A stretch of 64,000 nucleotides of DNA from NCBI RefSeq assembly GCF_055900595.2, contig NZ_CM148325.1. One strand, 5' to 3'. Made by a program: the position numbers and the translations under genes. Shown here piece after piece: positions 9,167 to 39,585 of this stretch. The stretch's first letter is position 1, and each line of letters begins with the position of its first letter. The notes beneath the pieces were generated by a model. It searched no databases. It saw only the letters and a program-made list of their open reading frames with translations, and had not been told where the DNA came from.

Positions 9167-9532
9167 TTATTTTTGCACTACGATATTTTCTTGTGACGGA
9201 TCAACATGCTGCATTTGCAGCTTTTCCGTGGCGATCCTTTCCACCCGGCTATGGTCGCCGAGCGCATTCTCTTCAAGGATCAGGTTGCGCCATTCAATGT
9301 CTAAAGCATCTCGCTCCAGCACCAGTTGTTCGCGCTGAGCGGTCAGCAAACGGGTGTGGTGCGCCGTGGTTACCACGGTCACCGCCGTCAAAATAATGCA
9401 AATGAACAGGCAGAGTGGCAGCTTCCCAAATCGCAATAGATCGTCACCGATAACACCAGGCAATGCATGGCGCTCGTGGCTTCCCATCGATCCTTTAACT
9501 TTGCTTAGAGCTTCTGTCACTCTGCTGATCAT
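9167..9532 (-). CDS. ftsL: FtsL, cell division protein
   Basis: 121 aa [30 protein letters not shown]... with a single TM segment and leucine-zipper-like C-terminus; lies between rsmH and ftsI. Confidence 0.94.
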
Positions 9533-10470
9533 GCGTTCGTCCTCTCTGCAATACGCAGAACTGAACTACGGGCACGAGGGTTCTCAGCCACCTCTTCTTC
9601 GCCCGGCATTAACTTGCCTAGTGCTCGCAGCTGACGGCCACCCAGTTTTTTGAGCTGCTCTTCAGTCATCGGTAACCCTGCCGGAACTTGCGGACCACGG
9701 CTGTTTTCACGCATAAAGCGTTTCACAATGCGGTCTTCCAGCGAGTGGAAGCTGATGATCGAGAGCCTCCCCCCCGGGGCCAGCACGTTGAGCGAGCTTT
9801 TTAGCGCCTGCTCTATCTCCTCCAGTTCACTGTTTACCCAAATGCGCACCGCCTGGAAGGTACGGGTCGCGGGATGTTTAAACTTATCTTTCACCGGCGT
9901 TGCGGCAGCCACGACTTCCGCCAGTTCTTTGGTGCGGGTCATCGGCTGTTCGCGGTTTCGCTCGACAATGGCGCGGGCAATGCGTTTGGCAAAACGCTCT
10001 TCACCATAGGTTTTCAATACCCAGGCGATATCGGCTTCTTCTGCGGTTTGTAGCCATTCAGCGGCTGACTGCCCACGGGTTGGGTCCATACGCATGTCCA
10101 GCGGACCATCGCGCATAAAGGAAAAGCCGCGTTCAGCATCATCAAGTTGCGGTGAAGAGACGCCAAGATCGAGGAGAATGCCGTCGATCTTGCCGATAAG
10201 ATCGCGCTCGGCAACATATTCGCCCAGCGCGGAGAAAGGTCCGTGGATGATGGAGAAGCGCGGATCATCAATAGTCTTCGCAACGGCGATAGCCTGCGGG
10301 TCGCGATCGATCGCCAGCAAACGCCCCTCTTCGCCAAGCTGCGAGAGGATCAGACGTGAGTGACCACCGCGACCAAAAGTCCCATCAATGTAGATGCCAT
10401 CAGGACGGATATTGAGGCCATTAACGGCTTCATCCAGCAGCACCGTAGTATGTTTATAGTTTTCCATCAT
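9529..10470 (-). CDS. rsmH: RsmH (MraW), 16S rRNA m4C1402 methyltransferase
   Basis: ORF-track frame 9529..10599 is N-extended; internal start [19 protein letters not shown] gives the expected 313 aa. SAM-binding [10 protein letters not shown] motif. Confidence 0.94.
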
Positions 10471-10471
10471 T

Positions 10472-10930
10472 TTATAGAGACAAGTCCTGCAGTCGCTCCG
10501 ATAAGTCTCCGGTAGCCAACTGCTCTGCGTCGATATCTTCCTTGACCTGTTGATGCCAGGTTGTTTCATCCCACAGCTCAAACTTGTTGAACTGTCCAAC
10601 CAGCATCACTTCTTTTGTCAGCCCGGCATGTTGCCGCAGTACTGGCGCGATTAATAATCGACCGGCGCCATCCATCTGACATTCGCTGGCATGACCTAAC
10701 AGAAGGCGCTGCACACGGCGCTCAACCGGGTTCATGCTCGACAGACGCGATAATTTTTGCTCGATAATTTCCCATTCAGGCAGGGGGTAAAGCAGCAGGC
10801 ACGGGTGATGAATGTCAATGGTGCAAACCATTTGACCGGCAGCGTTCTCAAGCAGCTGTTCCCGATAACGGGTAGGCACTGATAAGCGCCCTTTGCTGTC
10901 GAGATTGACTAACGTTGCTCCCCGGAACAT
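10472..10930 (-). CDS. mraZ: MraZ, transcriptional regulator of the dcw cluster
   Basis: ORF-track frame 10472..10966 is N-extended; start [19 protein letters not shown] gives 152 aa. First gene of the dcw cluster. Confidence 0.93.
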
Positions 10931-10949
10931 GCCAGCCTCACCCCTTATT

Positions 10950-11040
10950 CCCACTTTGCCCCACAATTTCCCACTGAAAGGAGTTTACGGAGCGGAGGAA
11001 AAGCTTGTCAAGCCAGTCACAAGGCATACCGAGGTAAAAA
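10950..11040 (-). promoter_or_regulatory. mraZ/dcw promoter region with three direct GTGGG repeats (MraZ operator-like)
   Basis: Reverse complement of 10950-10976 is GTGGGAAATTGTGGGGCAAAGTGGG: three GTGGG repeats with 5-nt spacers just upstream of the mraZ start. A TTGACA-N17-GTAAAC promoter-like element lies further upstream on the same strand. Confidence 0.7.
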
Positions 11041-11530
11041 ACCCGATGTTTACGGCTAATATCAGCGTTGTTTATTTTACGTCCAACGTGCGAAGCAAAT
11101 TAACGTTATGAATAGCTGTAAGAAAAAATCCCTCATGGTCATCACCGTTTTAAAATGACTAACTATTTTCCACAGCAAATATAAAGTGTCAGTTTGCGAC
11201 GCGAGCGGCATTTTAGGACATATCTTCCCCAGTTAACAGTCCCTGTTGCGTCTGTGTGGCGCTTGATGCCAGCAGGTTTGCGCAAAAGCAAAGAAAAGTG
11301 TTTGTTAAATCGGCAATTCATCTCTGCATGTAACAAAATAATGCAAAAACGCTCTGTCAATATTGCTTAATTATTGTGAATTTCAGCAGGTGAGTTAATT
11401 AATGGGCGGGTTTAAAAGCATTTATCAATAATAGCCAGGAATAGTCTTATTTACTTTAAGGATATTGATGTCCATTCCCGTACTCGACGCGCCAATGAGA
11501 AATTCACTGGCGCGTATTTTTGTTCGCGGC

Positions 11531-16825: not shown

Positions 16826-16852
16826 ATATCGTATTCATCTGGAGCTGATTTA

Positions 16853-16939
16853 ATGACTCACATCGTTCGCTTTATCGGTCTACTACTACTAAACGCATCT
16901 TCTTTGCGCGGTAGACGAGTGAGCGGCATTCAGCATTAA
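16853..16939 (+). CDS. leuL: LeuL, leu operon leader peptide
   Basis: 28-codon [31 protein letters not shown] with four consecutive CTA Leu codons, followed directly by the attenuator hairpin. Confidence 0.93.
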
Positions 16940-16961
16940 GCCAGCACGCAGTCAAACAAAA

Positions 16962-16989
16962 AACCCGCGCCATTGCGCGGGTTTTTTTA
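16962..16989 (+). terminator. leu attenuator (intrinsic terminator)
   Basis: AAAACCCGCGCCATTGCGCGGGTTTTTTT: GC-rich stem plus T-run between leuL and leuA. Confidence 0.92.
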
Positions 16990-21744: not shown

Positions 21745-21973
21745 AAGAAAAAAGCCAGCAGATAATCACTGCTGGCGTGGCGATTAACACCAATACTCAG
21801 TCACACATGATGTCCGCAAATCAGTAGTCAGAATGACTCCCCTCCCACTGCATCAGCTCTTCAAGCATGGTTAATCGTTGTGGGACGCTTAACCAACGCA
21901 ACCAGCACAACGTCGCTGTCGCGGTAAAATAGTGCTGATAAAACTGACGCATGGGGCACCTCCTTGCTTCATC
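21745..21973 (-). ncRNA. sgrS: SgrS small RNA (sugar-phosphate stress)
   Basis: Minus strand reads GATGAAGCAAGGAGGTGCCCCATGCGTCAG... at the 5' end, contains the conserved seed CATGTGTGACTGAGTATTGGTG (plus-strand 21788-21809), and ends in hairpin GCCAGCAG-TGATTATC-TGCTGGC plus U-run. Divergent from sgrR. Confidence 0.88.
21821..21952 (-). CDS. sgrT: SgrT, small protein encoded within SgrS
   Basis: 43-codon ORF MRQFYQHYFTATATLCWLRWLSVPQRLTMLEELMQWEGSHSDY inside the SgrS transcript, with a GGAGG Shine-Dalgarno upstream. Confidence 0.8.
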   Translation of the reverse strand: MRQFYQHYFTATATLCWLRWLSVPQRLTMLEELMQWEGSHSDY

Positions 21974-23724: not shown

Positions 23725-23835
23725 TAACGCCGTTCTCAACGGGGTGCCACGCTGCCGCGTGCGCTGAGAAAATACCCGTCGAACCTGATCCGGATAACGC
23801 CGGCGAAGGGATTTGAGGCTCCTTCTCAAGTCCTT
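23725..23835 (+). ncRNA. TPP (THI-box) riboswitch in the thiBPQ leader
   Basis: Conserved THI-element blocks AACGGGGTGCC ... CTGAGA ... ACCC ... AACCTGATCCGGATAACGCCGGCGAAGGGA directly upstream of thiB. Confidence 0.85.
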
Positions 23836-39494: not shown

Positions 39495-39585
39495 GCGATT
39501 AGGTAGGCCGGATAAGGCGTTCACGCCGCATCCGGCAATTTGTGCCGCCGGATGCGGCGTGAACGCCTTATCCGGCCTACAATTT
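39495..39585. repeat. REP/BIME: inverted pair of REP palindromes
   Basis: GGTAGGCCGGATAAGGCGTTCACGCCGCATCCGGCA ... TGCCGCCGGATGCGGCGTGAACGCCTTATCCGGCCTAC fills the whole gap between the convergent rluA and djlA. Confidence 0.85.

Follow-up and report, generated by a model that had tools for sequence, protein, structure and literature searches.

The three GTGGG direct repeats upstream of mraZ are very probably the operator through which MraZ acts on Pmra in E. coli, and part of a negative-feedback loop; this is the best explanation of the site as a whole. All of it is in the literature already: the site, the protein that binds it and how a box is recognized structurally. In the DNA analyzed here (a stretch of 64 kb, hereafter the window), three GTG(G/T) cores are spaced 10 bp from centre to centre, downstream of a -10 hexamer, overlapping a transcription start site (TSS) and upstream of mraZ. 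The window also encodes a cognate MraZ with two DXXXR motifs and a lysine, the cores are kept while their neighbours drift, and the site matches that of K-12 but for one base of the promoter spacer. A preliminary description of this DNA had taken the layout to be that of MraZ autoregulation, a reading supported by the K-12 identity, the K-12 TSS, the conservation of GTGG and the DNA-contacting residues of MraZ. It had also called the principle a known one, rightly: as summarized in PMC7761207 and PMC8475190, Eraso et al. (2014) showed K-12 MraZ to be a repressor of Pmra that binds repeated sequence upstream of mraZ.

The repeat array and the Pmra promoter

On the minus strand, positions 10974 to 10950 read GTGGGAAATTGTGGGGCAAAGTGGG, i.e. 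GTGGG-N5-GTGGG-N5-GTGGG, as found in the sequence and by a pattern search. Repeat 1 occupies 10970-10974, repeat 2 10960-10964 and repeat 3 10950-10954, and the three pentamers recur with a 10-bp period. The repeat string had been given correctly in the preliminary description but was assigned to 10950-10976, a range with 2 nt too many: its reverse complement starts CA-GTGGG, and the true extent is 10950-10974.

Along the minus strand, the array is preceded by a -35 hexamer with the perfect consensus TTGACA (11011-11006), an 18-nt spacer AGCTTTTCCTCCGCTCCG (11005-10988), the -10 hexamer TAAACT (10987-10982) and the 7 nt CCTTTCA. From repeat 1 onward the sequence runs GTGGG-AAATT-GTGGG-GCAAA-GTGGG, followed by AATAAGGGGTGAGGCTGGC and the mraZ ATG (10930), which lies 19 nt beyond the end of repeat 3. 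A purine-rich putative Shine-Dalgarno region, AAGGGGTGAGG (10936-10946, minus strand), is named for its position upstream of this ATG; in the alignment of mraZ upstream sequences, GGGGTGAGG is largely conserved. Among sigma-70-like sites in the cra-mraZ intergenic region, a promoter scan ranked TTGACA-18-TAAACT first, at 10 of 12 positions of the consensus. The repeats therefore do sit between a TTGACA-containing promoter and the mraZ start, as had been described. Two weaker promoter-like sites were found by the same scan in the intergenic region, at 11398-11370 and 11192-11165.

We searched both strands of the window for the pattern GTGGG-N5-GTGGG-N5-GTGGG and found a single match, while none of 100 dinucleotide-preserving shuffles contained one. 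The relaxed pattern GTGG-N6-GTGG-N6-GTGG also had one match in the window, and one of 100 shuffles had a match. Allowing two mismatches added one further match, at 10964-10940. We considered this as a possible fourth repeat and rejected it: it is the same array read one period further on, with GGGGT from the ribosome-binding region as its last unit, and we do not count this unit as a box in E. coli.

Transcription start and variation within E. coli

Aligned with a genome in K-12 coordinates, the DNA from the -35 hexamer through the mraZ ATG has one mismatch, which lies in the promoter spacer; everything from the -10 box through repeats and leader to the ATG is identical. The spacer reads TTCCTCCGCTCC in the window and TTCCTCAGCTCC in K-12, which has A for C at this position. 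Comparison with the published operator had been proposed as a check, and given this near-identity the operator studied in K-12 is the same DNA as that in the window. The window shares its C with nearly all other sequences, and by this comparison the A of K-12 is the derived base.

The start of transcription was taken from an RNA-seq table for K-12. It lists the class I forward TSS FWD_(I)-89590, for which the overlap with RegulonDB is flagged YES (PMC4681348 supplement). The table is supplement 1 of that paper, is at nucleotide resolution and is laid out under 'TSS | Left | Right | Overlap with RegulonDB'. We aligned MG1655 89549-89639 with window 11015-10925, which places 89590 at window position 10974. 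Positions 148 and 77367 of the same table are, we assume, the thrL and sgrS starts in K-12, and on this basis its coordinates were taken as those of K-12.

The base at 10974 is a G on the minus strand, the first base of repeat 1. As a K-12 mapping carried over to the window strain, this start lies 8 nt after the -10 hexamer and gives a leader of 44 nt. With +1 at 10974, the repeats fall at +1 to +5, +11 to +15 and +21 to +25. The preliminary description had named a start far from the repeats as evidence against its reading; the K-12 start is instead on repeat 1 itself. The ROSE TSS supplement has no entry for the mraZ promoter locus. PMC7761207 places the E. coli dcw transcription start 38 bp upstream of mraZ, by secondary citation, which corresponds to window 10968. 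A start there would be 14 nt from TAAACT, an awkwardly long distance for sigma-70. The two sources thus disagree (44 nt by RNA-seq, 38 bp by the secondary citation) and only 44 nt fits the spacing from TAAACT. Both 10974 and 10968 are inside the repeat array.

A start at 10974 makes the repeats the first 25 nt of the mRNA, and the purine-rich leader adjoins the ribosome-binding site. The repeats might then act at the RNA level, in a 5'UTR element that folds or binds a protein and so controls how mraZ is translated or how stable its mRNA is. When the RNA of 10975-10900 was folded, the repeats were wholly unpaired, and the folding energy was ordinary (z = -0.35; 71 of 200 shuffles folded at least as well). 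There is no Rfam match at the mraZ leader at gathering thresholds, and 10-bp helical phasing with a direct-repeat layout is characteristic of a DNA site. We consider action at the RNA level extremely unlikely, and an RNA-structure reading was rejected on the ordinary fold of the leader and the absence of an Rfam match.

To see how the locus varies within the species, we turned to 5,426 complete E. coli genomes. The 711-nt cra-mraZ interval matched in 5,423 of them, in one at 100% and in most at 95-99%; just 19 of the 5,423 were at 99% or above. Within the cra-mraZ intergenic region (10931-11530, minus strand), the differences from K-12 cluster in the cra-proximal half, which is about 3% diverged, and the 230 nt nearest mraZ are almost unchanged. 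For the 91-nt promoter-operator segment (11015-10925), 3,513 E. coli genomes reach at least 99% identity; K-12, owing to its spacer base, falls one band lower (98.9%). For the 30-nt array (10976-10947), the same level is reached in 5392 of 5423 genomes, a count that includes at least two partial matches. For a 37-nt core, 579 E. coli genomes are in the 95-99% band. One of these variants that we sampled has a C-to-T change in the discriminator just before repeat 1, with the repeats unaffected.

Only one of the 5,423 genomes, E. coli WS3294A (L083 in our set of loci, NZ_CP035819.1), has a 5-nt deletion, of CAGTG at about position 140 of the locus. The deletion corresponds to window 10972-10976 and removes repeat 1 and the mapped start base, leaving CCTTT-GGAAATT. 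Either the operator or TSS varies naturally in this genome or the assembly is in error.

Conservation of the array and the spacer across Enterobacteriaceae

To sample the family, a scan with the MraZ protein, one genome per species, gave 80 Enterobacteriaceae loci, among them Escherichia albertii, Citrobacter, Klebsiella, Enterobacter, Kluyvera, Raoultella, Buttiauxella, Cedecea and Siccibacter. We tabulated 59 distinct promoter-to-ATG sequences. The exact pattern GTGGG-N5-GTGGG-N5-GTGGG occurs in none of the 80 loci. Taken alone this would mean that the array is not conserved, a reading we rejected, as repeat 3 is GTGG plus a variable base and every locus has the relaxed pattern. Each of the 80 loci has a single copy of GTGG-N6-GTGG-N6-GTGG, always just upstream of mraZ and on the coding strand. 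In the full set, 83 of 84 loci have one match to the relaxed consensus, which is missing from the WS3294A deletion variant alone.

GTGG is invariant in all three repeats of the 59 distinct sequences. The fifth base is G in 58 of 59 for repeats 1 and 2, and in repeat 3 it is T in 42, A in nine, C in seven and G in one, the E. coli window. The spacers between repeats are partly constrained, the one before repeat 2 being T-rich (usually TTT) and repeat 3 always following AAA. Three GTGGG repeats had been described and are present in the window; the conserved unit is GTGG, and only E. coli has a G as the fifth base of repeat 3. On the alignment, the unit under selection in Enterobacteriaceae is GTGG at a 10-bp phase rather than GTGGG.

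The distances around the array vary little. Between TAAACT and repeat 1 there are 7 nt in 53 of 59 sequences, of variable composition. Repeat 3 is 18-20 nt from the ATG in 44 sequences and 27-29 nt in the other 15. The longer class has an insertion of about 10 bp, or one helical period, and the phase is preserved. It includes Buttiauxella, Cedecea, Siccibacter, Pseudescherichia and others, and has an extra degenerate unit (e.g. GTGGTGGAAAGGGGAATTTAAGGGTGAGG) about 30 nt upstream of mraZ. The loci of this longer class are L055, L057, L058, L061, L064, L065, L067-L072, L074-L076 and L078-L082. By its sequence, the extra unit may be a vestigial or weak fourth box.

One locus in the set, L023 (CACSKA010000010.1), is titled 'Chryseobacterium sp. 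18061' and has an enterobacterial mraZ that is 93% identical to the query. Over the last 100 nt before the ATG it is identical to L021 ('Citrobacter sp. 18056'), and the assembly is probably mislabelled or contaminated.

The G-runs of the array and leader could also be read as a G-quadruplex, in the non-template strand or the 5'UTR RNA, that modulates mraZ transcription or translation instead of or besides MraZ. A run of GGG-N7-GGGG-N6-GGG-N5-GGGG, GGGAAATTGTGGGGCAAAGTGGGAATAAGGGG (10972-10941, minus strand), overlaps the operator and the ribosome-binding site; it fits the canonical motif of four G3+ tracts with loops N1-7 and is one of just three in the window. A G-quadruplex downstream of the S. 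aureus mraZ promoter forms in vitro, and its stabilization by ligand affects a reporter (PMC11796246). For E. coli we found no experimental G-quadruplex evidence in the literature. Long G-quadruplex loops predict low stability, and at 5-7 nt the loops here are long enough for low stability to be predicted. Conservation decides the matter. Even with loops up to 12 nt allowed, only one of 58 distinct Enterobacteriaceae sequences has the motif, while all 58 have GTGG at a 10-bp period. The motif is confined to E. coli because repeat 3 is GTGGT, GTGGA or GTGGC elsewhere, and the two counts argue for selection on GTGG phasing and not on G3 tracts. A G-quadruplex as the main function was rejected on these grounds and we hold a role for one in modulating mraZ to be very unlikely. 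At most it would be a by-product, confined to E. coli, of the G in repeat 3.

The same 59 sequences bear on the promoter. Both hexamers are invariant, and the Pmra spacer is as conserved, column by column, as the -35 and -10 hexamers themselves. Variation is found in the DNA before the -35, in the discriminator and in the leader beyond repeat 3. The spacers of sigma-70 promoters are normally not conserved in sequence, and compared with these the invariance of the Pmra spacer points to an extra, unexplained constraint.

This strong conservation of the 18-nt spacer is a hint that something besides sigma-70 and MraZ may read the promoter. The repeats themselves could likewise belong to another DNA-binding protein, or have arisen by chance in a G-rich leader, with no link to MraZ. 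The shuffles rule out chance, as does an array that stays invariant from genus to genus between diverging flanks. The site is just upstream of mraZ in 80 of 80 loci, GTG(G/T) boxes also precede mraZ in distant phyla, and the binding of purified MraZ has been published for E. coli, Mycoplasma and Burkholderia sites (sources including PMC7761207 and PMC12957436). We give next to no credence to an array without MraZ.

MraZ, related operators and control of the division and cell-wall genes

Reading the array as the MraZ operator requires that the window encode a MraZ able to bind it. The mraZ coding sequence (10472-10930, minus strand) specifies 152 amino acids and matches Pfam PF02381 (E = 4e-47). 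The open reading frame list starts it at a TTG at 10966, a mechanical extension, and identical RefSeq genomes annotate the ATG. An identical RefSeq locus is annotated 'division/cell wall cluster transcriptional repressor MraZ', and every PDB relative of the window protein is named MraZ (Transcriptional regulator MraZ). Some of these entries presumably belong to the 2026 cryo-EM paper. Both DXXXR motifs are present, as D11-S-K13-G-R15 and D87-G-A-G-R91. Over the first 126 residues compared, the protein differs from that of K-12 only in H41 (Y41 in K-12). Residue 41 is encoded at window 10808-10810 (minus strand), and the His and Tyr versions are separate in RefSeq (WP_001295770.1 and WP_001295533.1).

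The second gene of the Pmra-controlled operon, rsmH (mraW), is at 9529-10470 on the minus strand (PF01795, E = 7e-124), with ftsL- and ftsI-type reading frames further downstream. Upstream of mraZ is the gene for the LacI-family regulator Cra. Elsewhere in the window, Rfam models matched at the gathering threshold for the SgrS sRNA (21747-21973, minus strand), the leucine operon leader (16839-16988, plus strand), a TPP riboswitch (23730-23829, plus strand) and naRNA4 (39506-39577, with equal score on both strands). These are broadly as expected for this part of the E. coli chromosome.

The closest known system is the E. coli K-12 Pmra (mraZ1p) operator with its three direct repeats (Eraso et al. 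2014, J Bacteriol 196:2053; PMC4010979), which is the same locus. Gene order (cra-mraZ-rsmH-ftsL-ftsI), repeat array, -10 box and distance to the ATG are the same as in K-12. The window differs in the spacer C, shared with other Enterobacteriaceae, and in H41 of MraZ.

GTGG-type boxes in threes have been described for E. coli, B. subtilis and Mycoplasma (bioRxiv 10.1101/2022.02.09.479790). The MBRs of the B. subtilis mraZ promoter region resemble the window in number (three), in being direct repeats built on GTGG and in their 10-bp period. Three copies of GTGG[A/T]G with 4-nt spacers are required there for MraZ repression of the mra operon, and the arginines of the DXXXR motifs are needed. In the same preprint, R15A removes the lethality of MraZ overproduction (bioRxiv 10.1101/2022.02.09.479790). 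Unlike the array in the window, written as a pentamer plus 5, the B. subtilis unit is written as a hexamer plus 4, and the flanks and promoter context differ.

The Mycoplasma sites (AAAGTG[T/G]N3) share GTG(G/T) cores, six spacer nucleotides and a TSS in box 1 just after the -10 (PMC12957436; Fisunov et al. 2016). For the Mollicutes the repeats are given as (AAAGTGKN3). Repeat 3 of the window has this AAAGTGG form and the AAA before repeat 3 is invariant. In M. genitalium there are instead four boxes, T is allowed at core position 4 and MraZ is an octamer (PMC12957436). Cryo-EM of that complex has one MraZ subunit on each GTG(T/G) box, with cooperative binding, an opened ring and the TSS inside box 1; Lys13, Arg15 and Arg86 touch bases in the major groove, and Asp11 and Asp82 position the arginines (PMC12957436). 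Similar to the window, PmraBc of B. cenocepacia has a repeated GTG motif downstream of the -10, overlapping the TSS 'as in E. coli', and purified MraZ bound it in EMSA (PMC7761207). It differs in having four 7-nt repeats, 3-nt spacers and a 100-nt leader, compared with three repeats and a 44-nt leader here (PMC7761207).

These systems suggest how the operator could work. Transcription from Pmra would start at or within repeat 1, and the array would span about +1 to +25 of the mraZ-rsmH-ftsL-ftsI... transcript. Each subunit of a MraZ oligomer would carry a 'cradle' of basic residues (K13, R15 and R91), and one cradle would read one GTG(G/T) box in the major groove. This geometry is that of the M. 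genitalium structure, a Mycoplasma octamer on four boxes, and the E. coli site has three. E. coli MraZ has been reported as a dodecamer. Boxes 10 bp apart are on one face of the helix, so adjacent subunits would be expected to bind cooperatively. MraZ arrayed from the start site into the first transcribed stretch would lie within DNA that RNA polymerase needs, and by steric occlusion may block polymerase binding, open-complex formation or promoter escape. The expected result is lower transcription of mraZ and the proximal dcw genes. As mraZ is the first gene transcribed, the loop would be one of negative autoregulation.

According to PMC7761207 and PMC8475190, repression of Pmra by MraZ in E. 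coli lowers expression from mraZ through murC. An E. coli mraZ deletion is reported in PMC8475190 to have no apparent phenotype, suggesting that the physiological weight of the loop is modest.

For the window itself, the locus is confirmed as intact and canonical, and there is no new biology. What is mildly new is comparative: GTGG at a 10-bp phase, a G in the third repeat that is specific to E. coli, indels downstream that preserve the phase, and an invariant spacer. We think it rather unlikely that E. coli has both a G-quadruplex control layer of its own and a second factor or DNA-shape constraint at the Pmra spacer. If it did, a G-quadruplex would form in the non-template strand and the mRNA leader, analogous to that of S. 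aureus mraZ. Pmra is the promoter for the leading genes of the division and cell-wall cluster, among them ftsL, ftsI, the mur genes and partly ftsZ. Few points are known at which transcription of the bacterial division machinery is controlled, and its operator is one of them.
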